Positions 20,248 to 59,472 of a stretch of DNA of 64,000 nucleotides are shown here, one piece after another. Position 1 is the first letter of the stretch, and the number at the start of each line of letters is the position of its first letter. The notes below the pieces were generated by a model that was not told the DNA's origin, did not search any database, and saw only the letters and a list, made by a program, of their open reading frames with translations. This DNA is from Promethearchaeota archaeon (GTDB taxonomy: Archaea; Asgardarchaeota; Lokiarchaeia; Sigyniarchaeales; SOKP01): contig JBHLOY010000004.1 in the NCBI GenBank assembly GCA_048939995.1, forward strand, positions 219,483 through 283,482. Direction: 5' to 3'. Position numbers and translations under genes: made by a program.

Positions 20248-22794
20248 ATAGGTATTTATAGTATCTTATCTCACCCTTTTCGACAAAAAATCCTACTCTT
20301 GTTAGAAAAAGAAGGATTCATCCCATACACCGATTTAATGGAAAAAATGGGTATCAATCAAACAGGTCAGTTAAATTTCCATTTGAAAAAATTAGGGTCC
20401 TTAATAAATAAAGATAAAAAATCTTATTATTTAAGTGAAGATGGCAAAAAAATTTTAAGAATTATGAATTTGAGCAAGCGTATTTTAGCAGGTGAAGAAA
20501 TAGAATACTTAGATAAAAAAGGGAGTGAAATTAGTAGAATAGGAGTGATTTTATGTGGTTGTAATACTGAAATATCCAATATAATAAATATCAATGCATT
20601 GGAAAGTCAAATTGAAAAATTAGATGGAGTAGTTTCAGTGAAGGTTTTTGATAATTTATGCCAAGAAAAAAATTTAAATAATATAACAAATTGGTCAAAA
20701 GAAAATTTTTTAAACAAAGTTGTTATAGCTGCTTGTTCCCCTAAAACTCATCAACATATTTTTGAGCGAATTTTCAAAGATGTGATTGATAATGCAAATA
20801 TTGAAATAGCAAATATTAGGGAACAATGTTGTTGGGTTCATCATTCAAATATTCAACAATTTGATCCTTTATTAGCATTAAAGAAAGCGAGTTTATTAAT
20901 TGAGGCTGCAGTTGAACGTGTAAGGCTTCAAAAAGAGGTTAAAATAAAAACTGTAGAAGTGGAAAAAAGCTGTGCAATATTAGGGGGTGGTATCGCAGGT
21001 ATGACATTAGCCCTTAATCTTTCACGTGCAGGGATAAAAGTATACCTAATTGAAAAATCACCTACTTTAGGCGGGAAAGTAGCCAGATGGCATCGGATTT
21101 CTAACATGGGGGATTGCTCTATATGTTTTATTTCCGAATTAATTGGTGAAATCGTAAAAGAAAAAAATATTGAAATTTTGACTAACACTGAAGTAGAAAC
21201 CGTTTCTGGAGAAGTAGGAAATTTTAGCTTAGATTTAATCAAGAAACCTCGATTTGTTGATGAGAAAAAGTGTACTGGGTGCAAACAATGCATAAATGTG
21301 TGTGGCAAAGAAAAGAAAAATCAGTATGAATTTGATTTAACTAATCGAAAAATAATATATATCCCCTTCCAAAATGCATATCCATATGCTCCTCTAATTG
21401 ACGAAGAAGATATTAATAATTGTTTAAACTGTAAGATATGTGAACGTGTTTGTATTAATAAAGCAATAGATCTAAGCCAAAAAGTTGAAAAAGTTCGAAT
21501 TAAAGTCGGAGTTAAAGTTATAGCTATAGGTGCTGACCTGTACTCCAATCTAGTGAAATATCTATATAATCCTCAAAAAGATATTATCACTTCTGCTGAA
21601 TTTGAGAGAATTCTATCTTCGGATGGCATTACTGAGGGAAAATTGCTAAGGTTATCAGATAAAAAACCGATAAATTCCATTTCAATCATTCAAGAAGTTG
21701 GTCCATCTAAATATCTTGCAGAATATTCTGAAAACTTAGCGCAAAAATATATTGAGGATATTAAAATAAGAAGTCCTGACTGTGAAGTAAATGTTTTTTA
21801 CGATTTAAGTAAATTAAAAAATAAAGATGAGATATTTCTAAAATCAACCAATCCAAGATTTCTTTACGCTAATAACATATCTATTGAGTCTAATGGTAAA
21901 ATTAACTATGTTATAGCCGATAATATTGAATTTCCAAGCGATCTGATAGTTTTAAATCTCAAATGTATACCTAATAAAGATCTAAAAATATTACGTAGAT
22001 TCATGGATTTTACATTGAATGATTACGGTTTTATGAGTGAAGAAACCCTAGCGTCAGGTATTTATGGAGTTGGAACAATATTTGGGGCTTTAAATTACCA
22101 AACTACCCTTTCTACAGTGAATACTGTTGCGTTAAAAATTATTGCACTACTCTCAAATGATTATTTATTAGCTGAATTTACTGGAATTGAAATTAATGAA
22201 GATAAATGTGGATTATGTGGATTATGTGAGAAAGCATGTCCTTATAATGCAATAACTATAGAATCGAATAAGATTAATATTGATAAATTTAAATGTAAAG
22301 GATGTGGTACATGCGCTGGAGTGTGTTCTACAAACGCCATTGAAATGAACATCGATACTTCAGAAAAGATTTTAAGAACAATTGAGATTTATTCAAAATT
22401 TGCTAAAAATCCTAAAATTATCGCTTTTTGTTGTTCTTCTTGTGGTTATGCCGCAGCTGATGATGCTGGTCTAAAAAAGGAGTTATATCAACCAAATATT
22501 TTTGTGATCCGCATTCCCTGTACTGGAAGATTAGATACTGAATTTATTTTTAAATCTTTTGAGGTCGGATTTGATGGAGTAATGGTAATAGGATGCAGGA
22601 AAGATGCTTGCAGATATATTGATGGTATTGAAAAAGCACAAAAAAAGATAACTCTCCTAAAAAGGATATTAAATCCCAAATATAGCAACCGAATTATATT
22701 TAAAAATTTAAATGCTGTAGAGGGCCATAAGTTTGCTGAGATCGCAAATAAATTTTATAATATTTTAAAGGAGGGGGCTACTAATCAAACTTAA
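20248..22794 (+). CDS. Fusion of ArsR-like winged-helix DNA-binding domain, degenerate HdrA (FAD/Fe-S) and MvhD
   Basis: N-terminal IYSILSHPFRQKILLLL...GQLNFHLKKL...YYLSEDGK; HdrA motifs RIGVILCGC, AACSPKTH, ANIREQCCWVH, GGGIAGM, DCSIC and two ferredoxin pairs; MvhD motifs FCC..C.YAAAD, RIPCTGR, GC....C. Start extended to ATA 20248 because helix 1 lies upstream of TTG 20299. Confidence 0.88.
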   Translation: MGIYSILSHPFRQKILLLLEKEGFIPYTDLMEKMGINQTGQLNFHLKKLGSLINKDKKSYYLSEDGKKILRIMNLSKRILAGEEIEYLDKKGSEISRIGVILCGCNTEISNIININALESQIEKLDGVVSVKVFDNLCQEKNLNNITNWSKENFLNKVVIAACSPKTHQHIFERIFKDVIDNANIEIANIREQCCWVHHSNIQQFDPLLALKKASLLIEAAVERVRLQKEVKIKTVEVEKSCAILGGGIAGMTLALNLSRAGIKVYLIEKSPTLGGKVARWHRISNMGDCSICFISELIGEIVKEKNIEILTNTEVETVSGEVGNFSLDLIKKPRFVDEKKCTGCKQCINVCGKEKKNQYEFDLTNRKIIYIPFQNAYPYAPLIDEEDINNCLNCKICERVCINKAIDLSQKVEKVRIKVGVKVIAIGADLYSNLVKYLYNPQKDIITSAEFERILSSDGITEGKLLRLSDKKPINSISIIQEVGPSKYLAEYSENLAQKYIEDIKIRSPDCEVNVFYDLSKLKNKDEIFLKSTNPRFLYANNISIESNGKINYVIADNIEFPSDLIVLNLKCIPNKDLKILRRFMDFTLNDYGFMSEETLASGIYGVGTIFGALNYQTTLSTVNTVALKIIALLSNDYLLAEFTGIEINEDKCGLCGLCEKACPYNAITIESNKINIDKFKCKGCGTCAGVCSTNAIEMNIDTSEKILRTIEIYSKFAKNPKIIAFCCSSCGYAAADDAGLKKELYQPNIFVIRIPCTGRLDTEFIFKSFEVGFDGVMVIGCRKDACRYIDGIEKAQKKITLLKRILNPKYSNRIIFKNLNAVEGHKFAEIANKFYNILKEGATNQT

Positions 22795-23530
22795 ATTTAT
22801 TGTAGCTTCATTAACTTCATGCAGTGGATGTATTTCAACATTGATGGCTTTAGATATGTTTTCTCAATTTTTAGAAAGGACCGAAATTTCATTTTTCCCA
22901 TTTATTTCAGACCAAATTGAAGTTAATGATTCAGATATCGCATTAATAGAGGGTTGTGTTTCAGAAATCAGTCAAATAGCAACTTTGAAGAATATTAGGA
23001 AACATGCAAAAAAAGTTTATGCTTTAGGTACCTGTGCTACTTTTGGGGGAATTTTGGGATTATCTAAAAGAAAAAATTCTGATCAAATCTCAAAATTTAT
23101 AGATATTGATGGATTTATACCTGGTTGCCCCCCTCCAACAAATCTGCTAGGAAATTCCTTAATGAGACTAATTGAAAATAAGAGCATTATTTTATCAGAA
23201 AAAAATATGTGTATTTCTTGTCCTCTCAAAGATGAAATGCATTTAAATTCTCAAATCTCAAAACTTAGTCCTTCTAATTCTGAAATTATGTCAGATAAAC
23301 GAGAATGCTTTTTAAATAATGGAATTTTATGTTTAGGACCGATTACTCGAGAAGGGTGTAATAATAAATGTATAGAACTGGGAATACCATGTGAGGGATG
23401 CTTAGGTCCTCCTAAAAAACAGTTTACTTCAAACCTAATTAATTTCTTAAGTCTGGTTCAACTATCCAATAAATTAAAGAGATATTCGGGTATTTTTTAC
23501 AGATTTTCAAAACCAACATTAAGAGGGTGA
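22784..23530 (+). CDS. Group 3 [NiFe]-hydrogenase small subunit (MvhG/HydD-like)
   Basis: (M)KLKFIVASLTSCSGC lies upstream of the track start; EG, GTCATFGG, PGCPP, CISCP, CLGPIT..GC...C and PCEGC motifs. Inferred ATC start after GGAGGGG. Confidence 0.88.
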   Translation: MKLKFIVASLTSCSGCISTLMALDMFSQFLERTEISFFPFISDQIEVNDSDIALIEGCVSEISQIATLKNIRKHAKKVYALGTCATFGGILGLSKRKNSDQISKFIDIDGFIPGCPPPTNLLGNSLMRLIENKSIILSEKNMCISCPLKDEMHLNSQISKLSPSNSEIMSDKRECFLNNGILCLGPITREGCNNKCIELGIPCEGCLGPPKKQFTSNLINFLSLVQLSNKLKRYSGIFYRFSKPTLRG

Positions 23531-23536
23531 GGAAGA

Positions 23537-24835
23537 GTACAGAAGGTAATAAATGTATGTTCAAGAGTTGAAGGCCATGGGAAAGTAAATTATTTCATAC
23601 AAAATGAGCATATTGACCATGTTGAATTCGAAATTTCTGCATTTAGGGGATTCGAAAACATTTTAATAGGTAAGAAATTAAGTGATATCCCTAAGATTGT
23701 TTCACGAATTTGCGGTCTATGTCATGCTTCCCAAACAATTGCTAGTTGTAAAGCAATTGAAAAAATTTATGAAATCCAACCTAGTTCTCAAGCTACTTTA
23801 CTTCGAAGATTATTAATGACGGGAGAATTAATTAAATCTCATATTATGCATTTTTTCTTTCAAACCTTACCAGATCTTTTAGAAATTTTTCAAGTGTTTA
23901 AAAATGGAATTGATTCATACAATTTAATTAGATTTGATTCTCAATTGAGTACTTGCGTTTTTGATTTAATTAAAGCAGGAACTGAGTTAAATAATCTTTT
24001 TGGAGGAAGGATAATTCATTTGATTACCCCTGTTCCCGGAGGAATGATCTACTACCCTTCAAAAAAGAAAATTCTACTTGCCCAAAAATATTTGCAGAAA
24101 TCTGCTTCTAATATACAATATGTTTTAGATCGCTTCGTTGAATTATTCTCTACTAAGAATCCTCCTTATGAATTTAATATATCGAATCTATCATATCTAG
24201 GAATGACTAATCAAGGAAAATATGATAGATATAATGGGACTCTAAGCATTATTCCTTTCAATCAGAATAGAATAAATTTTGAAATCAATGATTACGAAAA
24301 CTATTTTGATAAAGACTCTTGTTTGTTTGGAATAAAATTTTTATCTGATATAAAGAATATCTTAACTGGACCTATCGCAAGATTCTTTTTAGTAAAAAAT
24401 AATAATGAAATTGAAAAAAATACTATAATAAATAACTTTGATAATAATTGGAAAGAAAATCTATTACTTATGAACATTTTGCAACTATTAGAGATCTCTA
24501 ATGAAATAAAGGGTAGTCTAGAGATATTAAATAAACATAGTCTAGAAATTAAAGAACCACTTCCCTCTCTTAATTCCACTTTAAATCAAGAGGGTATTGG
24601 AATGGTTGAAGCTCCACGTGGGACCCTCATACACCACTACCATTTGAATAAATCTAAGGTTATTGATAATGTTAAACTCTTTATAGCCACTGAAATTAAT
24701 TTTCCCCTTTTGAATGAAAAAATTAAAAATTACGCTCAAGAGTTATACAAAAAAGAAGATTTAGAATCTCTCAATAGAAAAGTTCAAATTATGATAAGAG
24801 CTTTTGATCCATGTATCTCTTGTGCCACACATTAA
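23537..24835 (+). CDS. Group 3 [NiFe]-hydrogenase large subunit (MvhA/HydA-like), no C-terminal extension
   Basis: RVEGHG, RGFE and L1 RICGLC lie in frame upstream of the first ATG (23816); EAPRG; L2 DPCISCATH directly followed by the stop. Start uncertain (GTA 23537 inferred). Confidence 0.88.
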   Translation, partial: VQKVINVCSRVEGHGKVNYFIQNEHIDHVEFEISAFRGFENILIGKKLSDIPKIVSRICGLCHASQTIASCKAIEKIYEIQPSSQATLLRRLLMTGELIKSHIMHFFFQTLPDLLEIFQVFKNGIDSYNLIRFDSQLSTCVFDLIKAGTELNNLFGGRIIHLITPVPGGMIYYPSKKKILLAQKYLQKSASNIQYVLDRFVELFSTKNPPYEFNISNLSYLGMTNQGKYDRYNGTLSIIPFNQNRINFEINDYENYFDKDSCLFGIKFLSDIKNILTGPIARFFLVKNNNEIEKNTIINNFDNNWKENLLLMNILQLLEISNEIKGSLEILNKHSLEIKEPLPSLNSTLNQEGIGMVEAPRGTLIHHYHLNKSKVIDNVKLFIATEINFPLLNEKIKNYAQELYKKEDLESLNRKVQIMIRAFDPCISCATH

Positions 24836-24855
24836 AAAGATTTAGTGTTGATCTA

Positions 24856-25869
24856 ATGAATAATATCGAAACGATTCGCAAGGATAATGTAGAACCTGTG
24901 CAACTATGTGAAATTTTCTTACTCTACTTTGATGAGGAATTTGGCCCAATGCCACTTCTTATCACTCCGGATGAATCTTTAAAAAATAATCTCGATGTTA
25001 TGCGGTTAATTAGAATCCATTCCATTTGGTTTCTTGATATAAGCGATCAGACCTCTCCTGATCGTATGGATTTAGAATATAAGGAAAAAATCTATTTTGC
25101 AAAGAAATTTTTAGTACCTTCACAGAGAGAAAAACGACGGTCAGGTTCTGAAGGAGATACTTATGAAACACTCGTTTTAATTTTAGCTTTACCAGTTGAT
25201 ATGGATATCTTTGGAGGAGCTCTTCTCAAAAGAATGGCTGAACGATTAACAAAGCATTTTGCATTAAAATTCACTCGCTTGATAGATTCTGAAGTGGCAA
25301 AAATGAATGCCATAAAAACGCCTTCAACCTTAACTTTAATTCAGATCGGCGATACTATTAAAAAACGAATAAGCGTTTTAATCAAAAATACATGTGTCCA
25401 ATATTTTGATGCTGTAATCAAAAAAACGGATTCTACAACTTTCAAACTTCAAAAAGCTATATCATATTTATCGTTAAAAGGAGTCCCAATTAACTATATT
25501 GTAAGTGAAGAGGGAAATTTAGGCTTTTCAAATGTAAAACTGTTTGAATCAAAAGTTTTAGCAAATGACACATATGGAATTCGAAATCAATTTAAGATTT
25601 TAAGCACTGATATAGATCCAGATACTCAGGAAGTTGAAATCTTAATTAAAAATCAAACAAGTAAAGAATTTAATAACATATATGCAAAAGTTATTTCTAT
25701 TCAAGAATTCTTCGAAAAAGAGGTTTTACGTGAAAATATTGAAAAATGGCTTCCTGAAGAGGAATTAATTATTATTTTACCAAATATAATCTCAAATTTT
25801 GAATACTATTTTTCTATTCAAGATGTTAGTTCCAATCAGACTCTGTTTAAACAAAAACTAAGATTGTAA
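24856..25869 (+). CDS. Hypothetical protein with N-terminal uDENN/longin-like segment
   Basis: IFLLYFDEEFGPMPL resembles the first strands of uDENN/longin domains; beta-rich C-terminus. Confidence 0.55.
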   Translation: MNNIETIRKDNVEPVQLCEIFLLYFDEEFGPMPLLITPDESLKNNLDVMRLIRIHSIWFLDISDQTSPDRMDLEYKEKIYFAKKFLVPSQREKRRSGSEGDTYETLVLILALPVDMDIFGGALLKRMAERLTKHFALKFTRLIDSEVAKMNAIKTPSTLTLIQIGDTIKKRISVLIKNTCVQYFDAVIKKTDSTTFKLQKAISYLSLKGVPINYIVSEEGNLGFSNVKLFESKVLANDTYGIRNQFKILSTDIDPDTQEVEILIKNQTSKEFNNIYAKVISIQEFFEKEVLRENIEKWLPEEELIIILPNIISNFEYYFSIQDVSSNQTLFKQKLRL

Positions 25870-25882
25870 CTTCGAAAATTTC

Positions 25883-26251
25883 TTAAAATTGAAACTCGCG
25901 ATTTCTTAGTTTCGAAACTAAATGCCCCCTACTAAGAAGTTGTATCCCAAATTGATTAGAATAGTCGCGAGCAAAATCAGTTGCGATATTGCACACCATT
26001 ATTCCCCCTTCAATGTCCGGAACATCAAGGCATGCTTTATGGAGTTGTCGTAATTGAGTTATAGAGATTTCTCTTTTCCAATCTCGAATAAATATTCCAT
26101 ATTTTCCATATTTTCCATCATCCACAATAGCATTGAAATCCCATAGTTTTCCGGATTTTCCTTTTAATTTTTGAGGATTATTATTATACTGAAATTTTTC
26201 AGAAAAGACTTTTTTTGCTAATTCAGCTAAAGGGGTTTCATTAAATGACAT
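25883..26251 (-). CDS. Mrr-like PD-(D/E)XK restriction-endonuclease-fold protein, probably degenerate
   Basis: GKSG...F strand, GIMV....T..AR.Y....GIQL tail; catalytic D and E-x-K not conserved. Confidence 0.6.
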   Translation of the reverse strand: MSFNETPLAELAKKVFSEKFQYNNNPQKLKGKSGKLWDFNAIVDDGKYGKYGIFIRDWKREISITQLRQLHKACLDVPDIEGGIMVCNIATDFARDYSNQFGIQLLSRGHLVSKLRNREFQF

Positions 26252-26423
26252 GAAATCACGACTCTTTTTATTTAAATAAATCGTTTACGTATTATTTAAA
26301 TGTTAGTTGTATAATTCCTACTAATCATCATAAAAATATGTAATATATACATATTATGGGTGTATTTTTGAAAATCATTCGTTTATAAAGTAAGAGCTTT
26401 GAACCGACAAAAAATTTAAAAAA

Positions 26424-27287
26424 TCAATGTCGCAATTCCTTTCCTACCTTGAAATGGTTAAAGAGCTTATGTAATGGATATTCACCATTAACATCCATTC
26501 CATTCAGCTTAATAAAATCGATCAGATTTTGCTTTAAAAATAAAATTATGCGATTAGCTATTTTGTTACATACATACTTGCAATCTAAAAAATCGTGTGG
26601 GAGTAAAGGACAAGCTCTATTATTTTCTAGGCAGAATTTTTTCATCTGTAGTGAATAACCATCCACTAAAAGAATATTAAAATTATCCCATTTATCAATA
26701 AATCCTCCTAACCTACTTGGTGGAATACTTAGTATAGCTTGTTTTAAAATCTCAGTATTTCTACGCTCTTCAGTTGTAGAATTCAAACCTAAGCGATACC
26801 GAACCCTTTTCATTTCAGATTTGGCTTCTAACTTACATAAAAAATTGTAGATTTCTAACAATTTTTCAGCTTGAATTGTCTTTTCTGGATCACTTATTTC
26901 CCACTCTGCTGATTTTTTACATTTAATTACACCATTTTCTGGATTTGAGAAATTAGTAGGATATATCCAGCATTGAGGTGGTTTTATGCCAGAATTATGA
27001 ACTTTACATCCATTTAGTTTATTATCAAATAGAAAACATTTTCCATTTTTATCATTAAATCTTAATTCAAATGCAAAAACATCACTTCTAGTAAAGTCTC
27101 CTGTAGTTGCGTATCTTCTGCTAATGTATTCTTCAGCTAATACTTTAGGAACATCAATCTTTATAGAGCAACAACCACCTTTACAAATATTAGGATCTGT
27201 GCAATCTGGTCCTTCAATAGCAGATTTCATTAAACTATTGAAATTTCTAATAATAAACCAAAAGTAATTATTATTTTGATGCACCAA
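26424..27287 (-). CDS. YkgJ-like cysteine-cluster (Fe-S/Zn) protein
   Basis: C....C.G.CC, KCFLF, GCKVH...KPPQCWIYP motifs. Confidence 0.7.
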   Translation of the reverse strand: MVHQNNNYFWFIIRNFNSLMKSAIEGPDCTDPNICKGGCCSIKIDVPKVLAEEYISRRYATTGDFTRSDVFAFELRFNDKNGKCFLFDNKLNGCKVHNSGIKPPQCWIYPTNFSNPENGVIKCKKSAEWEISDPEKTIQAEKLLEIYNFLCKLEAKSEMKRVRYRLGLNSTTEERRNTEILKQAILSIPPSRLGGFIDKWDNFNILLVDGYSLQMKKFCLENNRACPLLPHDFLDCKYVCNKIANRIILFLKQNLIDFIKLNGMDVNGEYPLHKLFNHFKVGKELRH

Positions 27288-27373
27288 ATTATTATAATAA
27301 TCTTAACAAAATTTTTTATTTTTTACTATAAACAGAAAAACAATTATATTCAAAAATACAAAAGGTCTAAAAT

Positions 27374-28015
27374 ATGGTTATTTTAACAATTATCTTCGAA
27401 ATATTATTTATAATTAATTTTCCTCTCTATTGGGCAATTACTTTAAAAGTTAACCGAGTAAAAATAAAAAAATATTATACAAAATTCTTTGCAATATTAT
27501 GGACCTTTTTTATAATATTTATCTTGCTTCTTACATCTAATATTATTCAATTTATTTATAAAGAGAATCTCAGTTATTTTCAAGATTTCTGGGCATGGTT
27601 TTTAATTTTGGGAATCATTTTTACTATTGCAGGCTTTAAAATTACTTCCATAGCGCGGAAGCTATCTAAGGAAAAAGTTTCTAAACCTAAGGACTCGAAA
27701 TTAACAAAATATGGGATTTATAAAATAATTAGGCATCCTAATTATCTTTCTTGGTTCTTAATATTCATAGGTTTTAGCTTTATTTTTGATTCGTTTCTAA
27801 CCATCGTATTTGTGCCTATCTTTATTATTCTATTAGAATCACATGCAATTCTAGAGGAGAAATATATCCTTATACCTTTTTATGGGAATGAATATCTCGA
27901 TTACAAGAAAAAAACCCCTTTCCGCCTCGTTCCACGACCTTATAGCTACGTCTTTATAATACTTGCTGTTGTTATAGTTTATATAGGATTTTATAATTTC
28001 ATTTTAAAAAATTAA
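27374..28015 (+). CDS. Isoprenylcysteine carboxyl methyltransferase/PEMT family membrane protein
   Basis: GIYKIIRHPNY and EE..L...YG.EY..YKK.TP motifs. Confidence 0.85.
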   Translation: MVILTIIFEILFIINFPLYWAITLKVNRVKIKKYYTKFFAILWTFFIIFILLLTSNIIQFIYKENLSYFQDFWAWFLILGIIFTIAGFKITSIARKLSKEKVSKPKDSKLTKYGIYKIIRHPNYLSWFLIFIGFSFIFDSFLTIVFVPIFIILLESHAILEEKYILIPFYGNEYLDYKKKTPFRLVPRPYSYVFIILAVVIVYIGFYNFILKN

Positions 28016-28139
28016 TTTAATCCTAAGTCAAACGTCTATATATTAGCTTTATCGTATTAAATTCTAATAAATTATAACCCAAATTATAAAATATTTACAT
28101 ACTATTTGAAGAATAAAGATTAAGTGAGGGTTTGAAAAA

Positions 28140-28649
28140 ATGACTAAAAAAGTCGCAATCTTGGCAACTGATGGTTTTGAGGATGCTGAATTATTATATC
28201 CAAAATTAAGATTGGAAGAAGAAGGGATTGTTACAGAGTTGATCAGTTTACATAGAAGAGAAATCATAGGGAAACATGGATACCCATTAAAACCAGATAA
28301 ATTGGTTAGAGAAGCAAATACTCAGGATTATGATGGAGTGATAATACCTGGTGGTACTAAAAATCCTGATTATCTACGACGAGAAAAAGAAGTTTTAGAT
28401 TTCGTTGCAAAAATGGATGAACAAAAAAAACTAGTTGGTGCCGTGTGTCATGCGGGGTGGGTTTTAATTTCTGCTAAAATAATAAGAGACCGTAAAGCTA
28501 CAAGTTATTTTGCAATTAGAGATGATATGATAAACGCAGGTGCCAGATTTGAAGATAAATCTGTAGTGGTTGATAACAACTTAATAACGTCTCGAAAACC
28601 AGATGATCTACCTGATTTTATGAAAGAAGTTTTGAGATTTTTAAAATAA
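28140..28649 (+). CDS. pfpI: PfpI/DJ-1 family protein (type 1 glutamine amidotransferase-like)
   Basis: GFEDAE, IPGG, AVCHAG and LITSRKPDDLP motifs. Confidence 0.92.
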   Translation: MTKKVAILATDGFEDAELLYPKLRLEEEGIVTELISLHRREIIGKHGYPLKPDKLVREANTQDYDGVIIPGGTKNPDYLRREKEVLDFVAKMDEQKKLVGAVCHAGWVLISAKIIRDRKATSYFAIRDDMINAGARFEDKSVVVDNNLITSRKPDDLPDFMKEVLRFLK

Positions 28650-28670
28650 AGCTTTTTTTTAAAAATAGAT

Positions 28671-29879: not shown

Positions 29880-29974
29880 AATTATGATAAATCATGTTAT
29901 TATATCTTTTTATAATAATATATTTATAAAGTTATTTAACTCCACAATTCAAAAAATTCCCACACATTAAAATT

Positions 29975-49780: not shown

Positions 49781-50128
49781 TTATAATGGCATGTAGAACT
49801 TACATAATATGCATTGTTTTGCTTTTAAACGTCTTTCTGGTCCTAAGATAATATATTTAGTTTGCATTGAACCACCACACTTAGGACAACTTTTAGCAAA
49901 ATTTTCTTTTATTGAATCCAATACTTTCTGAATGTTTTTTTCTAATCTGAGGAGTTCATTAGCATTTTCAATAATTTTCTTGGCAGAAATCAGTCCTATT
50001 CCTTTGATCCAAGCTAGCTCTTCGGGTTTTGCATTTGCAATATCCTCAATTGAACTAACACCTGCTTTATTCAAATTAATAGCAGCTACTGGCCCAATTC
50101 CCCTTATTCGCTCAAGCTCATTAGACAT
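49781..50128 (-). CDS. Helix-hairpin-helix domain protein with C-terminal Zn ribbon
   Basis: IRGIGP and IKGIG HhH motifs; CPKC...CILC. Confidence 0.8.
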   Translation of the reverse strand: MSNELERIRGIGPVAAINLNKAGVSSIEDIANAKPEELAWIKGIGLISAKKIIENANELLRLEKNIQKVLDSIKENFAKSCPKCGGSMQTKYIILGPERRLKAKQCILCKFYMPL

Positions 50129-50292
50129 AATGCAGAAACTAAAAATATTTACTTTGAAATATATCTCTCTGAAGTTCTTATCAGGTATTTTAAATCTATT
50201 TGTATTAATCGAATATATTTATGCTTTATATAATCTTATTAATACGGAAAAAAAAAATTTTATAATTTAAAAAATTCTCTCTAATTAAAATA

Positions 50293-51024: not shown

Positions 51025-51135
51025 ATTGAATTTTTTTTTGAAATTTGTAATTATTATTGTAATTTAATAATTTAAATGCATTTAACATTTGCTATTATTT
51101 AAAAAATACAACAGATTTAGAAAAATACTTGAGAT

Positions 51136-51846
51136 TTATAGTTGTTTCGCGACACCGTAATATATAAAGTAAAGGGCAATTAACGTAGGTAGTGATATAA
51201 TTGACCAAATGCCCCTAAATGCAGGATCCGCTAATGTATTTGAAAGAGATGTACCATAATATAGAAAGAAATAAGCAAATATTCCTATCAAGAAATATTT
51301 CCATTTCTTTTTAAGTTCTTGATGTTCTAATTTAAGATAGATCCTTAATGCAAAAAATATTGTAGGAAGAATAGTGACAAAACTACAAAGAATAGTACTG
51401 TATATAAAAAATGGCCAATTCCAATCAGGTTTCCAATTAGTGGAGGAGTCAATCGTAATTCCCCCAGGAATAAGTAATAATCCAAATAAAGTTATCCCAA
51501 AAATAATAATAATTAATACTTGAGCAGGTAAAGTAATTATCTTTTCTGATTTCCAAAGAATTAAGACAAATATGAGTAAAAATCCGAGCGAAATGCATAA
51601 AAGATAGTATGTTATAAAATGGAGGATGAATACTATAAGTTCATTAAAAATGAAAGCATAAATTATGTTTATAATAACTCCTGCAGCAGCAGTAAAATAA
51701 AATAAGCTTAAAATTAAGTTTAAACCTTTATATTCTCTTTTTAAAATCTTATAGGTCATGAATAGGAAAAATAAACCAGAAAAGCCTTGTACTATGAATA
51801 TTTGTATAAATCTGGGTAAATCTATTACTTGTAGGATTGTAAACAA
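51136..51846 (-). CDS. 7-TM membrane protein, paralog 2
   Basis: Shares QG, K.LKR...LN, KSE..IT, P.W, LKKKWK.F..G, SNTL..P.FR and YYGV with its neighbour. Confidence 0.65.
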   Translation of the reverse strand: MFTILQVIDLPRFIQIFIVQGFSGLFFLFMTYKILKREYKGLNLILSLFYFTAAAGVIINIIYAFIFNELIVFILHFITYYLLCISLGFLLIFVLILWKSEKIITLPAQVLIIIIFGITLFGLLLIPGGITIDSSTNWKPDWNWPFFIYSTILCSFVTILPTIFFALRIYLKLEHQELKKKWKYFLIGIFAYFFLYYGTSLSNTLADPAFRGIWSIISLPTLIALYFIYYGVAKQL

Positions 51847-52050
51847 GTTTATATCCCCGTAATTTTATCAAAAATTAACTTACTAACTAATGTTTTTTTT
51901 TGTTTTTAATATATAATAAATCTTTTGCAATTGAAATATTGTTCATCAAATTAAGATATATTAATTAATTTTAAATAAATCGATTCAATATTATCTTAAA
52001 TCTCAATTTAATTAGGAAATAATTTCAACTAAAAATTTCTGGTAGTTATT

Positions 52051-53523
52051 TTGAAACATTATGATCTAATTTTCATTCATCCCCCTAGATTATTAAAACC
52101 GGATTATGGTAGAGTCGTGAAATTTATTAGAGGAGCCTTTATTTTCATTCCTATGGGGGTTTTTGCAATAGGTGATAAGCTTAAAAAAGAGGGTTTTGGT
52201 GTTAAAATCATTAATTACCCTTTAGAACAATATTTGGAAAAAAATTGGAATCTGAAGACTTATCTTAAGAGTATTGATTTTGATGTATGTGCAATAGACT
52301 TACATTGGATACATCATTCTCACGGTGCTATTGAAGTATCTAAAATAGTTAAAAATATAAATCCTAACGCTAAAATACTGCTGGGAGGTTTCAGCGCTTC
52401 ATACTACCATAGAGAAATCCTTGAATACTATCCCTCTATAGACGGCATAGTCAGAGGTGAGGGTGAAATTCCTCTTTTAAAGTACGTTGAGAATATAAAT
52501 CATAATTCTTTCGATTCTGTCCCCAATTTATCTTATCGAGACTCTAGCAAGCACATAAAGAAAAATCCTTTATCCTATGTAGCAAAAGATTTAGATGATT
52601 TAGAGTTTACTAATGTATCACTCCTAAAAAATGCAAAAAAGTATCTTGAATGTAGTAGAAAGCTTATGGGTATCTCTTTCAATCTTCCTATCGGAAGAGG
52701 TTGTCCTTTCAATTGTCCTCTTTGTGGGGGTGGTCAAAGAGCTCAACAAAGCTACATGGGTCGAGAATCAGTAATTCTCAGATCACCAGAAAAAATAGTA
52801 AATGATATACATAAAATAAGTTCTAAATATAAAATTCCTAGTGTCTTTTTTGGACATGGTTCTTATCAAAGTAATTTAAAGTATTGGAAAAGACTATTTG
52901 GTCTAATACAGAAAGAGAGTTTTGATCTTGGAGGAGATTTAGAGATATGGCGACTCCCATTCCCTAAAGAAATGTGGAAGATATTTTATAAAACCTTTAT
53001 AAGAAGATATTCTTCGATTAGTATTTCTCCTCGGACAATTTCACCAAAAGTCCATCAAAAAGTTGCTAAAGTCTGTGATCCAACTTTTAGATTTCCAGAA
53101 AACCAAATTAATGATTTAATCAAAAATGCCAACCTATTTAGAATGATACTTAGAATTTGGTTAACAATTGGATATCCTTTTCAAACACGCCTAGATTTCG
53201 TTAATGACTTTAAATTTGCAATGAAATGTCTCTTCAAATATGGAAAATCAACCGCTAAACCAATAACAATTATGAATGAACCTTATTTTGCTTTCCCTGG
53301 TTCTCCCGCGTTTCAATTTCCTGAGAAATTTGGAATACACTTTAGGTATCATTCCTTCCCTGAGATTGTTTATGCTTTTAAGCAAGCTAAGATATCTTCA
53401 TTAAACAATGTAATAAATTACAACACTAAATATTTTTCTGGAATGGATATTCATCGTCTTAATAGGTTATTCTTTCTAAGTACAGCACCCATGTTTCTCA
53501 CAACAGGCTCCAAAAAGCCATAA
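52051..53523 (+). CDS. Cobalamin-binding radical SAM protein
   Basis: B12-binding N-domain (LHW..H, LGGFSAS, RGEGE) and GRGCPFNCPLC. Confidence 0.88.
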   Translation: MKHYDLIFIHPPRLLKPDYGRVVKFIRGAFIFIPMGVFAIGDKLKKEGFGVKIINYPLEQYLEKNWNLKTYLKSIDFDVCAIDLHWIHHSHGAIEVSKIVKNINPNAKILLGGFSASYYHREILEYYPSIDGIVRGEGEIPLLKYVENINHNSFDSVPNLSYRDSSKHIKKNPLSYVAKDLDDLEFTNVSLLKNAKKYLECSRKLMGISFNLPIGRGCPFNCPLCGGGQRAQQSYMGRESVILRSPEKIVNDIHKISSKYKIPSVFFGHGSYQSNLKYWKRLFGLIQKESFDLGGDLEIWRLPFPKEMWKIFYKTFIRRYSSISISPRTISPKVHQKVAKVCDPTFRFPENQINDLIKNANLFRMILRIWLTIGYPFQTRLDFVNDFKFAMKCLFKYGKSTAKPITIMNEPYFAFPGSPAFQFPEKFGIHFRYHSFPEIVYAFKQAKISSLNNVINYNTKYFSGMDIHRLNRLFFLSTAPMFLTTGSKKP

Positions 53524-53560
53524 ATTAATTTAAGCAATTCCTTTCTGGTTTTAGAATAAT

Positions 53561-53812
53561 TTGCCGCATTCTAGTTTAATATGGGAACATGAAACTAAAA
53601 GGATTTTCGATGAGTTAATAAACATATCACCCCCTCAGTTTCAATCTATGGCACGAATGGCAATCTCCTCTCTTGCAACAGAAAAAGCAAAAAAGACAGG
53701 CTCTAGAGAGGTGCAAAATCAGGTCATCCTAGAAATATTTATAAAGGGAACCCCAGGACCATTTCAAGCAGATATGAGGGAAGGTTTTAAGAAATCTGGA
53801 CTTCTAAAATAA
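53561..53812 (+). CDS. Small helical protein, DUF2621/PCP-reductase-like
   Basis: W..E....F..L....P..F...A...I and TP.PF pattern. Confidence 0.55.
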   Translation: MPHSSLIWEHETKRIFDELINISPPQFQSMARMAISSLATEKAKKTGSREVQNQVILEIFIKGTPGPFQADMREGFKKSGLLK

Positions 53813-53862
53813 AATGTAATTTTAAAAATTAAAAAAAGAGTAAAAAAAATTCAAGAATATAC

Positions 53863-54057
53863 CTACTTTTCACGCCATTCAGTTCCACATTTTCCACATC
53901 TATATTTCTTACCATAAACTCTAGGATAATCACTAATTATATTTGTTTTATCAGTTGATTCATGAATCATATTCTTCTCTTCATTCGCGCACATGGGACA
54001 TTTACGGCGACCATCAGTTTTTTCAATAGTTAAAAGATTATTTGTACGTTCTCCCAT
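53863..54057 (-). CDS. Stand-alone Zn-ribbon protein
   Basis: GRRKCPMC...YPRVYGKKYRCGKCGTEW. Confidence 0.75.
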   Translation of the reverse strand: MGERTNNLLTIEKTDGRRKCPMCANEEKNMIHESTDKTNIISDYPRVYGKKYRCGKCGTEWREK

Positions 54058-54153
54058 AAACAGATCTCAACTTTAAGTTATTTTGTTTGTGTTATTATTA
54101 TTTCTGATTATATTATGAGAATTGTAATTATTAAATCTTTACAAGTAGATGAA

Positions 54154-54765
54154 TTAAAAATTAGTATGCTTTTTTAATTCTTTTCCATAAGAAATGGCAT
54201 TTTTTAATAATTCTGGATTGATATTACCCAATTTCAATATAAAATTATCAAAAATTTTATTAAAGAGTTCTAAAAGATCTTGTTTTTTATTCTGAATTTC
54301 AAAACAATATAAAAAACCTAATTCTTTGGTTTTTCTGATAAGATCAATAGTAGTTATTCTCTCTCGGTTTGAAACAATTTTTTTTTCAATTAAGTCTTTA
54401 TTTACTCCTAAAAGAATAGAAATCCCATGAAACATGTAAATCTTGTTGAAAGTTTCAAACTCTTCAAATTTGATGTCTTCTAAAGAATTGAGACTAAAAA
54501 TGTCCACAACATTAATAAGTACATCAAGTCTCTTAATTTTTGAATAATTATCTGACAAATGGTTATAATTTAGAGCATTAAATAGTTCAACTTTGATCGG
54601 AACATCTTTAAATACAACTAAAAACTCGATTGATATGTCATGTGCATTCGAGTTTAATGCCATTTGCTTTAAGTATTCAATAATAAGTTCATTTCCATAA
54701 TTATCTCTGTCAATAACCCCAAGATTCAAAGAAAATTTAATCTTTTTCAAAGTGTCACGTTCCAA
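54154..54765 (-). CDS. Degenerate Ras/Rab-like small GTPase-fold protein
   Basis: Topology and residual motifs (LINVVDI...SL, ILLGVNKD, CFEI....LLELF), but no GxxxxGK[ST] P-loop and no DxxG. Confidence 0.55.
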   Translation of the reverse strand: MERDTLKKIKFSLNLGVIDRDNYGNELIIEYLKQMALNSNAHDISIEFLVVFKDVPIKVELFNALNYNHLSDNYSKIKRLDVLINVVDIFSLNSLEDIKFEEFETFNKIYMFHGISILLGVNKDLIEKKIVSNRERITTIDLIRKTKELGFLYCFEIQNKKQDLLELFNKIFDNFILKLGNINPELLKNAISYGKELKKHTNF

Positions 54766-54846
54766 AAATAATAATTACAACTATTAATTTTACAAATATA
54801 GATAAAACTTAGTAATATAAAATCTTGTTTGTAAAGCCTTTTTCTA

Positions 54847-55779
54847 ATGTTAGCAATATATTTTCTGTTAATCTTAATGATAAGCATTTGGAGTTTTTCA
54901 TTTATCGTAGTAGATGTATTAATTGAATTTATACCTTCGCTTTCAATAGCATTTTATAGGTTCACTATTGCTTCAATTGCCTATCTCTTGATAGATTTAT
55001 ACCAAACGCTTAATAAGAGAAAAATTGATGAGAATAACAATCTTAATTTGAATAAAGCTTATTCAAAAAGAGATTGGATTTACATTTTCATTTCAAGCCT
55101 TTTTGGAGTTTCATTATTTTTCTTTACTCAATATTCATCTATCAATTTAATTGGACCGTCGATTCCAGCTCTATTTGTATGTTTATTAGCACCTGTTATA
55201 ATCGCGACATTAGCAATTATCTTTTTTAAAGAAAAACTAGGTAAAATAAAGATTTTTGGTTTTATAATTGCCACTTTTGGGGGTTTTTTGTTAATATCAG
55301 GAGGAACTATTGAAAATTTAACCCCCTTGTCTCCTAATTTCTTAGGATATATGTTTGCGCTCATGACACCAGTATTTTGGGCAATCTATTCTACTATAAG
55401 TAAAAAAATAGGTAAAACGAGTTCTGCTAACAGAATGAATAAATATATATGTTATTTAGGAACGATAGAATTATTAATCTTACTTTTAATCAATCAAGAA
55501 CTTGAAATACTCATCCAAAATCTTTCGAATCCAGTTCTATTATTATCCTCTATATATCTAGGAGTAGGTTGCTATGTCATAGGATATTATATATGGCAAT
55601 ACGCTCAAAAGAAATTAAAATCAGCTAAAGTAGCTTCATTTTTATATATTGAGCCCTTTCTTACATTATTTTTTTCATTAATTTTTCAAAGGAGTGACGA
55701 AGTCGTAATTTGGAACGTATTAGGAGGGATTATTGTATTGATAGCAGTTCTTCTCATTAATTATGAAAGGATACATTAG
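54847..55779 (+). CDS. DMT/EamA family transporter
   Basis: 10 TM helices; W..SF, FYRF, KEKL and LYIEP motifs. Confidence 0.88.
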   Translation: MLAIYFLLILMISIWSFSFIVVDVLIEFIPSLSIAFYRFTIASIAYLLIDLYQTLNKRKIDENNNLNLNKAYSKRDWIYIFISSLFGVSLFFFTQYSSINLIGPSIPALFVCLLAPVIIATLAIIFFKEKLGKIKIFGFIIATFGGFLLISGGTIENLTPLSPNFLGYMFALMTPVFWAIYSTISKKIGKTSSANRMNKYICYLGTIELLILLLINQELEILIQNLSNPVLLLSSIYLGVGCYVIGYYIWQYAQKKLKSAKVASFLYIEPFLTLFFSLIFQRSDEVVIWNVLGGIIVLIAVLLINYERIH

Positions 55780-55781
55780 TA

Positions 55782-57206
55782 TTACAAATTATCCTTAACG
55801 ATTTCATTTAATTCATTAGCTAAATTTTCATCGATAGTTTTTATAAATGGTTTATTTTCCAAAGTTAATGCCTGTTCCCTTGCTCTTATCCTTATAGATT
55901 TAGATCCTAATTCCTTCCATGTATCGCGTGTTGATCTATCAATAATCGAACTTGGTATAAACAATTCTTTCTTAAATAACCTTAATGTCAATGGATGAGA
56001 TAATAGTTCATGTTTTACCTCATATGCTTTAAGAATATCAGAGGCAAATGGTGTTCCGTGGTCCTCAATCCCTCTTAAAAATCTTCTCGCCATCCCAATT
56101 ATCTCATTATCAATTATTAGTTTTTCAATACTCTGCGTAGATTCAAAATCTATCATACCTGGCCCAGAAACCATGTTTACACCTGCTAAAGTTGCTAAGA
56201 GAGCACCAATTCCCGCTTCAAACCCTGCCTGCGCATCTGGTACTTTTGAATCACTTAAACTCATATAAGCATGAGTTGGGAGATTTAGGAATTTTCCCAT
56301 TTCAATATCTCCTATATTTATCATCATAGTTTCAATAGCTCCCATTGGTGTAGTACCACTTTTCATATCCAAAATTGCAGGGGATCCCCCCCATATTAAT
56401 GGAGCCTTTTTCCTTGTCAATTGAACAATTACTACTCCTGCTAAGGACTCAGCACAGTGTTGTGTTATTGAACCAATCAAAGTTATTGGAGCATTAGCAC
56501 CTGCCAATGGCATTGAAACAAATTCGGATGGGATCATACTTTTAGCAGCATCAATAAGAGATTGAGTGGTTAGATCTGACCACTTTAATGGAGGACTGGG
56601 ACAGGCATCAAATATAGCAAGTGGTTTCTTAGCCAAATCTTGCTCTGATGATCTACAAGCTAACAAAAGCTCCTTCATAATTCTAAAACTTTCTTTACGA
56701 AATGTTCCAGTAATAATAGGCTTATAACAATGAGACAATGCAAGATATAATCTATGCCAATCTTGAGCCTCTTTTGGCACGTCTTGATAAATGATTGCAG
56801 TACTCTGGGCATCAATGAATGGAAGTTGTTCAACTATTTTTGAAAAGCGTACAAAATCTTTTGAAAGCGCTTCCCTTATTTCTCCCGTATTTTCATCTAA
56901 TAAAAAAATTGCAGCCGATCCAGGATCGTAATGGACATTGTCATCACTTAATGAAAGGTAGTTTTGACCCTCTCGATCATATAATTTGATTTCAGATGGA
57001 GCCGACCTCAAACATTTATCTACTAAATCTGATGGTATATAATAACGAGAATCTTTTTCTGGAATACCTTGCGCTTTAAATATTTCACTTGCTTCTTTAT
57101 TTTCCAAAAAAATTCCTTGAGTTTCAAGAATGTCTTTTGCTTCGCTAAAGATTTGAAGCTTGTGTTCTTGATCTAATAACTGGATATTAGGTTTTAAGAT
57201 GGTCAT
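55782..57206 (-). CDS. Trimethylamine methyltransferase (MttB) superfamily, non-pyrrolysine
   Basis: APS...LYDR, SPPL.W, GANAPITL.G, DSKVPDAQAG.E and S.EKL.IDNE motifs; no in-frame TAG. Confidence 0.9.
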   Translation of the reverse strand: MTILKPNIQLLDQEHKLQIFSEAKDILETQGIFLENKEASEIFKAQGIPEKDSRYYIPSDLVDKCLRSAPSEIKLYDREGQNYLSLSDDNVHYDPGSAAIFLLDENTGEIREALSKDFVRFSKIVEQLPFIDAQSTAIIYQDVPKEAQDWHRLYLALSHCYKPIITGTFRKESFRIMKELLLACRSSEQDLAKKPLAIFDACPSPPLKWSDLTTQSLIDAAKSMIPSEFVSMPLAGANAPITLIGSITQHCAESLAGVVIVQLTRKKAPLIWGGSPAILDMKSGTTPMGAIETMMINIGDIEMGKFLNLPTHAYMSLSDSKVPDAQAGFEAGIGALLATLAGVNMVSGPGMIDFESTQSIEKLIIDNEIIGMARRFLRGIEDHGTPFASDILKAYEVKHELLSHPLTLRLFKKELFIPSSIIDRSTRDTWKELGSKSIRIRAREQALTLENKPFIKTIDENLANELNEIVKDNL

Positions 57207-57213
57207 ATTTAAA

Positions 57214-58113
57214 TCACTTTTTAATATAAGAATCTATACGATCTTTAACATCTCTTATAGTTTTAGGAGATGTACCGCAACATCCTCCAACAATTTTAGC
57301 ACCAGCTTCAATTATTTCAAGAATATCCTTTCCAAATTCTTTTTCTGACTGATCATAATACGTTAGTCCTCCCGGTTTCACTCTAGGTTTGCCTGCATTT
57401 GGTTTAATAGATAAAGGTTTTGTTGTAAATTTACTCATTTCTCCAACCAATTCAATCATATCTTTCGAAGCTAACGTACAGTTACTTCCTATTACTTCTA
57501 CTTTTTCGTCTTCAACTTTTTCTATACATTGTTGCAATGAGTGTCCCATAATAGTAAAAAAGCCCCGTTTAGTTTTCTTATAAGTCATAGAGCTGATGAT
57601 TGGTTTGTTAGAAAGTTTTTTTATTGCTTTTATAGCTGCAATCATTTCATCAATATCAGAAATAGTTTCAATATGCCATAAATCAACACCAGCTTCCAGA
57701 TGTTTCACCTGCTCCAAATAGCTTGAGTACCATTGATCAAATGTTGCTTTTCCGATGGGAGGTTTATATTCACCGGAGGGCCCAATATCTCCTACCATTA
57801 AATGTTCAGGTGGACACGCTTTCTTTAAATTTTCAAGAGCTTTCTCATTTATTTCTTTAATACGATTTTCAAGTTTGTATTTTTGAAGATTCAAGAAATT
57901 AGATCCAAAAGTATTAGTTTGACACATATCTGAACCAGCAAGGTAATACGATTTATGAATTTCTGAGATTACATCAGGTTGTTCAATATTTAACAGATCT
58001 GGAAGTTTTCCAGGTGTGATCCCATATTTGAAAATTTCTGTGCCCATTCCGCCATCAAATAAAATTATTTTTGAAGGATTTCTTAACCAACTTTCAAATA
58101 TATTAATAACAAT
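57214..58113 (-). CDS. Homocysteine S-methyltransferase domain (MetH N-terminal/Bmt-like)
   Basis: ILFDGGMGT (begins upstream of ATG 58047), TNTFG, IET, GSNC, PNAG and GGCCGT motifs. Inferred ATT start (58113 or 58107) after AGGAGATGA. Confidence 0.88.
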   Translation of the reverse strand: MVINIFESWLRNPSKIILFDGGMGTEIFKYGITPGKLPDLLNIEQPDVISEIHKSYYLAGSDMCQTNTFGSNFLNLQKYKLENRIKEINEKALENLKKACPPEHLMVGDIGPSGEYKPPIGKATFDQWYSSYLEQVKHLEAGVDLWHIETISDIDEMIAAIKAIKKLSNKPIISSMTYKKTKRGFFTIMGHSLQQCIEKVEDEKVEVIGSNCTLASKDMIELVGEMSKFTTKPLSIKPNAGKPRVKPGGLTYYDQSEKEFGKDILEIIEAGAKIVGGCCGTSPKTIRDVKDRIDSYIKK

Positions 58114-58127
58114 TTCATCTCCTTATG

Positions 58128-58781
58128 TTAATTGGCATGTTTTAGTAGACTTTTCACTAATTTGACAGCTTCAATGGCATTATCTGCATAGCCATCTGCA
58201 TTACATTCTTCAACCCAAGACTTGGTCACTGGAGCACCACCAAATATTACCTTAAATCTATCCCGTATGCCTCTTTCCTTTAATTTATCAATTAATTCTC
58301 TTTGACCAACCATGGTGGTTGTTAATAAAGCTGAAACACCAATTATATCCGCATCTTTGTCTAGAGCAGATTTGATAATTTTATCAATCGCAACATCAGC
58401 TCCTAAATCATATACCTCAAATCCATTGGCACTAAGCATTGTTGCCACAATAGTTTTACCAATAGAATGAATATCCCCTTCGATTGTAGCAATTACCACT
58501 TTTCCCGATTTTATATTTGTTTTATTTTCTCTTAAATGTGGTAAAAGTATTTCCATTGATTCTTGAACTATATTTCCCCCCAACATCAACTCGGGTAAAA
58601 AAAAATCACCCTCTTCCCATAAATTTCCTATACGACGGATTCCTGATCCAAAACCTTTTTCTATTACGCTCAATAGGTCCATGCCTTCATTTACTGCTTT
58701 TTCTGCCAAGTAGATCGCTTTATCTCTTTCTAGACTCACAATTGCATTTGAAATTTCTTTAAAAAATTCCTCTTGGGCCAA
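58128..58781 (-). CDS. Corrinoid (B12-binding) protein, MttC-like
   Basis: FLPEL, GDIHSIGK, SALLTTTM and GGAP motifs; GGAG RBS before TTG. Confidence 0.92.
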   Translation of the reverse strand: MAQEEFFKEISNAIVSLERDKAIYLAEKAVNEGMDLLSVIEKGFGSGIRRIGNLWEEGDFFLPELMLGGNIVQESMEILLPHLRENKTNIKSGKVVIATIEGDIHSIGKTIVATMLSANGFEVYDLGADVAIDKIIKSALDKDADIIGVSALLTTTMVGQRELIDKLKERGIRDRFKVIFGGAPVTKSWVEECNADGYADNAIEAVKLVKSLLKHAN

Positions 58782-58983
58782 ATTAATCTCCTAAAAGTTG
58801 TAAATTGTATTAACTAATTAAAACTTCTAAAGTTTAAAAAATTATAACTTAACTTCTAGTAAAACCTAATAATAACTACTAATTATTTATCGATTATTAT
58901 TAGGATATTTAACTGAAAAAATTATATATTTCTACACTATATGCAAATAAAAACAATAATTTAGGATTAAAGGTGAATTTAAT

Positions 58984-59472
58984 ATTCCAAGACGTTATTA
59001 TGCCAAAGCAAAAAAGACTTATGCCAAAGATCAAACATTTGATCAAGATCAAGTAGGAAAAGAGAAGGAGCGTTATCTAATAAGCATAGAGCTTATGAGC
59101 TTAAAAACTCTTAAGGATTATGATATTCTTGGCTGGCGAGGCGAATTCTATTTCAAGATTGATGGACCTAAGCTATTTAAAGCTAGATGGCCTAATAAAG
59201 GAACAATCAAATTGCAGAGAAATCAAGAATTTACTTCCAAAGCTGATATGTCCCTTTGGTCTCAATTTAAAACCGTGAGGGCTGATAAACCGACTACCGA
59301 AAAAATTAAAGTAATATTGAGGGAACGAGATGATCTAAAAAAAGATCATACAGTTACAGAACAAGAGTTCGAAATCAAATTGCCCTTTCCAACACAATAT
59401 GTAATTTTACAGGATGAAAAAGAAAACACTAAAGCTAAACTTCGAATTCAGGCGACGAGAACAAGATACTAA
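58984..59472 (+). CDS. Hypothetical protein, possible C2-like beta-sandwich
   Basis: Frame open upstream of ATG 59095 to ATT 58984, 7 nt after AGGTGA; DYDILGWRGEFYFKI and VILRERDDLKKDH patterns. Confidence 0.6.
   Translation: MPRRYYAKAKKTYAKDQTFDQDQVGKEKERYLISIELMSLKTLKDYDILGWRGEFYFKIDGPKLFKARWPNKGTIKLQRNQEFTSKADMSLWSQFKTVRADKPTTEKIKVILRERDDLKKDHTVTEQEFEIKLPFPTQYVILQDEKENTKAKLRIQATRTRY

Follow-up and report, generated by a model that had tools for sequence, protein, structure and literature searches.

Where does translation begin on a gene whose conserved N-terminal region lies upstream of every in-frame ATG, GTG or TTG? This question is raised by five genes in a 64 kb stretch of DNA (hereafter the window; G000:C13:219483-283482, contig JBHLOY010000004.1) from the metagenome-assembled genome (MAG) GCA_048939995.1 of a Promethearchaeota archaeon, a Loki-type Asgard archaeon whose assembly comprises 3.75 Mb in 38 contigs (~30% G+C, 98% estimated completeness, 5.3% contamination). 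Three of the genes form a putative sensor operon that encodes a fusion of a winged helix-turn-helix (wHTH) domain to HdrA-like and MvhD parts (the HdrA gene) and the small and large subunits of a [NiFe]-hydrogenase; the others encode a protein with a homocysteine (Hcy) S-methyltransferase domain and a conserved protein from an open reading frame (ORF) near position 59,000 (the 59 kb ORF). The original prediction held that these genes lack a normal start codon and begin instead at ATA 20248, ATC 22784, GTA 23537, ATT 58107 or 58113, and ATT 58984, respectively, and all of these coordinates check. We conclude, with a probability of about 0.85, that the five genes are intact and translated and that they are started at the near-cognate codons AUA, AUC and AUU, or in one case probably at GUA, behind a Shine-Dalgarno (SD) sequence, in a lineage that tolerates such codons.

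In all five genes, a conserved N-terminal part is located upstream of the first in-frame ATG, GTG or TTG (hereafter canonical codons), as judged from Pfam and NCBIfam profiles and, for the 59 kb ORF, from orthologs. The first canonical codons follow the proposed starts by 17 (HdrA), 19 (small subunit), 93 (large subunit), 20-22 (Hcy methyltransferase) and 37 (59 kb ORF) codons, inside or after conserved domains; the figure of 93 codons originally given for the large subunit is exact. Counted from the proposed starts, positions 5-76 of the DUF7347 (a wHTH) profile correspond to residues 4-72 of the HdrA fusion, position 1 of Oxidored_q6 to residue 13 of the small subunit, and positions 2-282 of S-methyl_trans begin at residue 18 of the Hcy methyltransferase. 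In the large subunit, NiFeSe_Hases begins at residue 37, and both RVEGHG and RICGLCH lie ahead of the first ATG. NCBIfam alignments begin, at their first profile positions, at residues 3-7 of the two hydrogenase subunits (residues 4-7 of the large one) and at residue 12 of the methyltransferase, so the proposed N-termini appear full length, and alignments of the 59 kb ORF with its orthologs (74-95% identity) begin at residue 1-3. Furthermore, a GGAGG/GGTGA-type SD stands at the genome's normal spacing before each of the five proposed codons (Table 1), in agreement with the good ribosome-binding sites first described. The segments between proposed start and first canonical codon evolve as coding sequence: their amino-acid identity among orthologs is 65-83% (50-85% in the rest of the protein), and 44-72% of their codon differences are synonymous (33-66% in the rest), the first 37 codons of the 59 kb ORF reaching 83% identity with 72% of differences synonymous. 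Signs of pseudogenes are absent, as all frames are intact, catalytic motifs are kept and substitution patterns are of the coding type.

To compare start codons among orthologs, each protein was used as a query against genomes of the same genus and the same order, and the DNA surrounding the N-termini was aligned by conserved motifs. Within one and the same column, some species have ATG, GTG or TTG, and others have ATA, ATT, ATC, ACG, CTG or GTA. For the HdrA gene, ATA is found in the window genome and in genomes G010 and G019, ATG in 17 genomes and ACG in G033. The small-subunit column contains ATC (three times), ATT (three), GTA (one), GTG (five) and TTG (four), with ATG in G006, while the ortholog in G007 has an ATG one codon downstream of the column. 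Likewise, the Hcy methyltransferase has ATT in G010 and G018 and an ATG one codon downstream in G021, G007 and G024, and the 59 kb ORF column is occupied by ATT (seven), ATG (eleven), GTG (three), TTG, ACG and CTG (two each). In several relatives, an in-frame stop directly precedes the near-cognate codon (the ATA of HdrA and the ATC of the small subunit in G010, the ACG of HdrA in G033, and the ATT of the methyltransferase in G010 and G018), which leaves no alternative start there. Near-cognates occupy all or most of the three operon genes in the window genome, G010 and G019 only; the other genus members carry ATG, GTG or TTG, and the three genes may, as originally proposed, be translationally damped.

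We next asked how far near-cognate codons are associated with SD sequences across the whole genome. Because the MAG has no 16S rRNA gene, and thus offers no anti-SD sequence, the SD consensus was taken empirically from 1,744 and 1,396 unambiguous ATG genes, which yielded a GGAGGTGA-type motif with GGTG at -11 to -8. Briefly, in 3,221 non-overlapping stop-to-stop ORFs of at least 100 codons, we considered in-frame codons that precede the first canonical start by 8 codons or more and scored those with a strong SD 5-mer at the proper offset. This survey returned such an SD for 92 of 1833 in-frame ATT, ATA, ATC and CTG codons (5.0%). Out of frame, the same trinucleotides gave 13/1770 and 12/1115 (one figure per frame), and in-frame codons of other kinds gave 182/10416 (Fisher p = 6e-15). 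The proportion was 5.5% for ATT (48/879), 4.3% for ATA (29/669), 3.8% for ATC (9/237) and 12.5% for CTG (6/48); among the other in-frame codons it was 2.0% for AAA (23/1140), 1.0% for AAT (8/842), 1.3% for TTA (10/792) and 0.8% for TAT (5/591). The 92 matches fall in 83 ORFs, and 63% of them lie within 5 codons of the upstream stop, compared to 43% for all such codons. With a background of ~1%, ~18 matches would be expected by chance, which leaves ~65-75 well-supported genes, or at least 2% of ORFs. As 351 canonical first codons are SD-linked (~80 expected by chance), near-cognates make up roughly one in every four or five strongly SD-led starts. TTG is frequent too, as had been noted: of the 3220 first canonical codons it accounts for 674, and of the 351 SD-linked ones for 89. 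The mean SD length is greater at near-cognate than at ATG starts (5.70 versus 5.34 nt, p = 0.001). Leaderless initiation was set aside, as no TATA-type positional signal was seen upstream of ATG starts, where the GGTG at -11 to -8 is the dominant signal.

The candidate list from this survey includes ABCE1, the PheRS beta chain, a Vps4-like ATPase, Ras- and RagA-like GTPases, APS kinase, ABC ATPases, Pol X and a flavodoxin whose CTG start precedes its first canonical codon by 101 codons. In seven of eight candidates tested (ABCE1, the Vps4-like ATPase, the Ras-like and RagA-like GTPases, APS kinase, flavodoxin and Pol X), the Pfam domain begins no more than 10 residues from the near-cognate codon and ahead of any canonical codon. 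The ABCE1 start column has ATT in the window genome, ATA in G103 and ATG or TTG in 14 other genomes.

Table 1 Proposed starts and SD sequences of the five genes in the window (positions counted from the first letter of the window)
Feature	Position	Strand	Stop-to-stop frame	First canonical codon	Remark
SD-like GAGGAG	20234..20239	+			AGGAG begins 13 nt before ATA 20248, within the genome's modal range
wHTH(DUF7347)-HdrA-like-MvhD fusion gene, proposed ATA start	20248..22794	+	20194..22794	TTG 20299 (codon 18)	Profile match and ortholog column
SD GGAGGGGG inside 3' end of HdrA gene	22770..22777	+			GGAGG begins 14 nt before ATC 22784
MvhG/VhuG-like [NiFe]-hydrogenase small subunit, proposed ATC start	22784..23530	+	22769..23530	TTG 22841 (codon 20, after CSGC)	Overlaps HdrA stop 22792-22794
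SD GGTGA, contains small-subunit stop TGA (23528-23530)	23526..23530	+			Begins 11 nt before GTA 23537, modal offset
MvhA/VhuA-like [NiFe]-hydrogenase large subunit, proposed GTA start (least certain)	23537..24835	+	23531..24835	ATG 23816	Spacing and orthology
SD AGGAGATGA ahead of Hcy S-methyltransferase-domain gene	58115..58123	-			AGGAG begins 10 nt before ATT 58113, 16 nt before ATT 58107
Hcy S-methyltransferase-domain gene, probable ATT start at 58113 or 58107	57214..58113	-	58122..57214	ATG 58047 (Met of DGGMGT)	Profile, orthologs
SD AGGTGA ahead of 59 kb ORF	58971..58976	+			AGGTG begins 13 nt before ATT 58984
Conserved 162-aa protein, no assigned function (59 kb ORF), probable ATT start	58984..59472	+	58960..59472	ATG 59095	Ortholog alignment

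Several points weigh against our conclusion. The N-termini of the five proteins are known here from sequence alone, the count of ~65-75 genes depends on a hand-made SD definition, and genes for 16S rRNA, initiator tRNA and aIF1 were not found in the MAG (the last by PF01253 and tblastn). When all near-cognate starts were counted by a position weight matrix mixture, the estimate (200-380) proved unstable for individual codons and was dropped, and the lower bound from strong SDs was kept. Finally, ATA, ATC and ATT each differ from ATG at one position, but GTA 23537 differs at two, and GTA shows no SD enrichment genome-wide (3/180), which makes the start of the large subunit less secure than the other four.

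We nonetheless consider GTA 23537 the probable start of the large subunit, since it lies at the modal 11-nt offset from GGTGA and exactly in the column, 9 codons before R[VI]EGHG, that holds ATT in G010, ATA in G007, ATG in G019 and three other genomes, and GTG in one. A start at ATA 23549, or at the out-of-frame GTG 23527 if the spacer contained a 1-nt assembly error, appears unlikely by comparison. It would agree with the lack of GTA enrichment and with the in-frame GTG (GTGA overlap) found three codons upstream in G010 and G019, relative to which the window spacer has one extra base. However, ATA 23549 would stand 23 nt from GGTGA, and the one-base difference matters only if the GTG of G010 and G019, itself part of the SD, were the start; the large subunit of G007, which lacks both an in-frame GTG and, over 84 codons, any canonical codon, indicates that this GTG is dispensable. 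One metagenome scan returned no match to the start region of the large subunit. A GTA also occupies the start column of the G011 small subunit (L052), where the closest relatives have GTG and no canonical codon follows for 116 codons; as the second apparent GUA start in the genus, it speaks for tolerance of GUA, perhaps aided at GTA 23537 by the stop codon 6 nt upstream.

Could the five codons owe their appearance, or their function, to something other than a tolerant lineage? That assembly or sequencing errors turned ATG or GTG into other codons, or that the genes are untranslated pseudogenes, might be suspected of a fragmented MAG with some contamination, but the same ATA and ATC recur in two independently assembled genomes, G010 and G019, the frames and catalytic motifs are intact with coding-type evolution of the N-termini, and 83 ORFs carry the signal in the reading frame only. 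Near-cognates that recur in independent assemblies, together with conservation, exclude both errors and pseudogenes for practical purposes. Termination-reinitiation is harder to dismiss yet still improbable: at the operon-internal genes (small subunit, large subunit and Hcy methyltransferase), ribosomes would restart a few bases from where they had stopped, codon identity would hardly matter, and GTA in particular would be explained. The geometry is suitable, given that ATC 22784 overlaps the upstream stop, GTA 23537 follows TGA 23528-23530 by 6 nt and ATT 58113/58107 stands 15-21 nt after the stop of the corrinoid gene. Nevertheless, ATA and ATT also stand at the HdrA gene and the 59 kb ORF, each of which is preceded by a long intergenic region, and across the genome the proportion of SD-led starts with an upstream same-strand stop no more than 30 nt away is no higher for near-cognate than for canonical codons (36% versus 37%). 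It is very improbable, too, that AUH is read at initiation by an additional initiator-type tRNA dedicated to this task through an altered anticodon. Rfam recovered only ~23 tRNA matches from the MAG and missed most of its tRNA genes, which leaves room for such a tRNA, but the sole initiator tRNA found in the family is canonical, and the accepted codons can depart from AUG at the first, second or third position (CUG, ACG, AUH), a pattern that tolerance of mismatches fits better than one new anticodon.

To determine how widely this tolerance of near-cognate starts extends, the in-frame versus out-of-frame SD statistic was applied to 400-800 kb samples of other genomes, the outgroup samples being small. 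Enrichment was clear in G078, which belongs to another genus of the same family (12/189 in frame; 0/176 and 1/121 out of frame). None was clear in the samples from four other Asgard families: G032 of family f2 in the same order (800 kb; 8/355 in frame, 6/324 and 3/247 out of frame), G033 of f4 (7/218; 6/263 and 2/163), G077 of f19, where 26% of first canonical codons are SD-linked (2/201; 3/208 and 4/146), and G066 of f7 (5/137; 3/140 and 3/95). The elevated near-cognate rate thus looks like a property of the window's family, in which two genera share it. Taken together, the flips in ortholog columns, the genome-wide SD association confined to the reading frame and the same signal in a second genus of the family sustain the original proposal of relaxed initiator selection in this lineage. 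Single cases are found outside the family, namely ATT in small subunits of f4, ACG in the HdrA gene of G033 and, in f2, CTG at the start of 59 kb ORF orthologs. As a further apparent case, the G077 sample (L189-L208, position 154915 of the concatenated sample) has a CTG behind GGAGGTG before LGKIRPSYIKR..., by eye the N-terminus of an S17e-like ribosomal protein.

How might near-cognate codons be accepted? A strong SD (consensus GGAGGTGA) would set the small ribosomal subunit so that the near-cognate codon sits in the P site, where the ordinary initiator Met-tRNA (anticodon CAU) would be accepted despite the mismatch; as the codon would be decoded by initiator Met-tRNA, the proteins most likely still begin with methionine. 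The family would tolerate such starts far more often than other prokaryotes studied, and this tolerance would let start codons drift among ATG, GTG, TTG, ATT, ATA, ATC, CTG and ACG at one position in close relatives. Output from near-cognates would be lower than from ATG, and aIF1 may set the stringency. In four genus mates, aIF1 (SUI1) itself has an ATT behind GGTGA or GTGA (L039 in G022, L040 in G016, L035 in G005 and L038 in G007); in G022 and G016 the first canonical codon lies 57-61 codons downstream, after the zinc-knuckle motif. In two genomes of the sister family f2, aIF1 starts at TTG, and in a comparison of aIF1 loop residues by eye nothing set the enriched family apart from the sister family. 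It is conceivable, though we put this forward only tentatively, that stringency is lowered family-wide, so that any single mismatch, and even GUA, is accepted behind a strong SD, and that ATT-started aIF1 closes a feedback loop governing an aIF1-tuned regulon of several percent of the proteome.

Two other causes were considered and rejected. Loss of aIF1 was suggested by its absence from the MAG, but the gene is present in 18 of 24 same-genus genomes and the absence is therefore almost certainly an assembly gap. An altered initiator tRNA was likewise not found: the MAG yielded no initiator tRNA (introns are common in the tRNA genes it did yield), and the one from family member G078 is canonical, with a CAU anticodon, A1:U72, three G-C pairs in the anticodon stem and a 21-nt intron.

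In the literature on non-canonical start codons of Asgard archaea or Lokiarchaeota, we found no paper describing the phenomenon. Near-cognate initiation as such has precedents: infC (IF3) and pcnB of E. coli are AUU-initiated, infC autoregulation is established, and genetic code table 11 includes ATT, ATC, ATA and CTG as alternative initiators. As in infC and pcnB, a near-cognate codon behind an SD would be the real start of an intact gene in the window, and the ATT at which the gene of a fidelity factor, aIF1, appears to start in genus mates recalls infC autoregulation. In E. coli, AUA, AUC, AUU and CUG yield about 0.1-3% of AUG output, and infC and pcnB are the only confirmed non-canonical starts (10.1101/063800). 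The window genome differs in that such starts would serve at least ~2% of ORFs (of at least 100 codons), including the essential ABCE1, and ACG and probably GUA would be used in the lineage too. In Pyrococcus abyssi, the initiator tRNA samples P-site triplets and aIF1 destabilises complexes on non-AUG codons (PMC6237735). P. abyssi and Saccharolobus solfataricus share with the window genome the SD type (GGAGGUGA) that pre-positions the 30S subunit, but they are described as selective for AUG, GUG and UUG, whereas selection in the window's family appears much more permissive. Ribosome profiling of Haloferax volcanii placed ~30% of putative alternative initiation sites at near-cognates, which were set aside by the authors to limit false positives (PMC7261190). 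Near-cognates of AUG are putative initiation sites in both organisms, but those of H. volcanii are extra or alternative sites, whereas in the window the near-cognate would be the only possible start of the main conserved protein. In eukaryotes, non-AUG initiation (CUG, ACG, GUG) is controlled by eIF1, depends on scanning and Kozak context, and mostly concerns upstream ORFs or N-terminal extensions. The same single-mismatch codon spectrum and a homologous fidelity factor (eIF1/aIF1) link it to the window's family, in which, unlike in eukaryotes, the sites would be SD-directed primary starts.

The hydrogenase genes contain RICGLCHASQ and DPCISCATH (large subunit), an N-terminal CxxC (small subunit) and an MvhD domain, with Pfam matches to NiFeSe_Hases, Oxidored_q6 and FlpD, and thereby match the nickel-binding motifs RxCGxCxxxH and DPCxxCxxH of an Mvh/Vhu-type [NiFe]-hydrogenase with HdrA partner. 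Their best NCBIfam matches (VhuA/ShyA, VhuG, HdrA2 and VhuD) all score under the equivalog cut-offs, so assignment to the Mvh/Vhu-type (group 3c-like) subgroup is approximate. A conserved 352-aa ORF without Pfam match (24811-25869, +) overlaps the 3' end of the large-subunit gene and occupies the same place in orthologous loci L001 and L003. The Hcy methyltransferase gene lies in a cluster with an MttB-family ORF (55782-57233) and a corrinoid protein gene (58781-58128, TTG start). Within the MttB-family ORF, which has no in-frame TAG, Rfam PYLIS_3 (the pyrrolysine insertion element of mttB) matches at 56159-56258 (-), a match that looks like sequence homology in a non-pyrrolysine MttB paralog. 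Out-of-frame ATGs adjoin both ATT starts (ATG 58118 directly after AGGAG, opening an 11-codon ORF at 58118-58083, -; ATG 59000, opening an 18-codon ORF at 59000-59056, +) and may be chance occurrences in AT-rich DNA or small overlapping decoy ORFs. At 925-940 (+), a 395-codon ORF has GTG 925 directly after a stop but inside an SD-like motif (AGGTGGAG), with ATT 934 at the modal 11-nt offset; ATT 934 may be a sixth near-cognate start in the window.

What do such starts mean for the reading of these genomes? The expectation that gene callers would truncate the genes was borne out in part: in the public collection the 59 kb ORF exists only as a 125-aa form from ATG 59095, on this contig, and the Hcy methyltransferase both as a truncated 277-aa form and as an NCBI 299-aa form for this contig that starts at ATT 58113. 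In such Asgard genomes, gene finders restricted to ATG, GTG and TTG would truncate or overlook the N-terminal parts of a few percent of genes, including the P-loops of small GTPases, the MIT domain of the Vps4-like ATPase and the Fe-S domain of ABCE1. As the truncated proteins serve arguments on the origin of eukaryotes, domain inventories, structure predictions and phylogenies built on such calls would be affected. A lineage with near-cognate starts at roughly one in five of its strongly SD-led genes would also provide a comparative system for start-codon fidelity in archaeal/eukaryotic-type machinery (aIF1, aIF1A, aIF2, initiator tRNA and the 16S P site), where an enriched family set against a sister family without clear enrichment narrows the search for the cause. 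If the tentative feedback through aIF1 holds, ABCE1, the Vps4-like ATPase, the small GTPases and the hydrogenase operon would constitute a translational regulon set by the level of aIF1.

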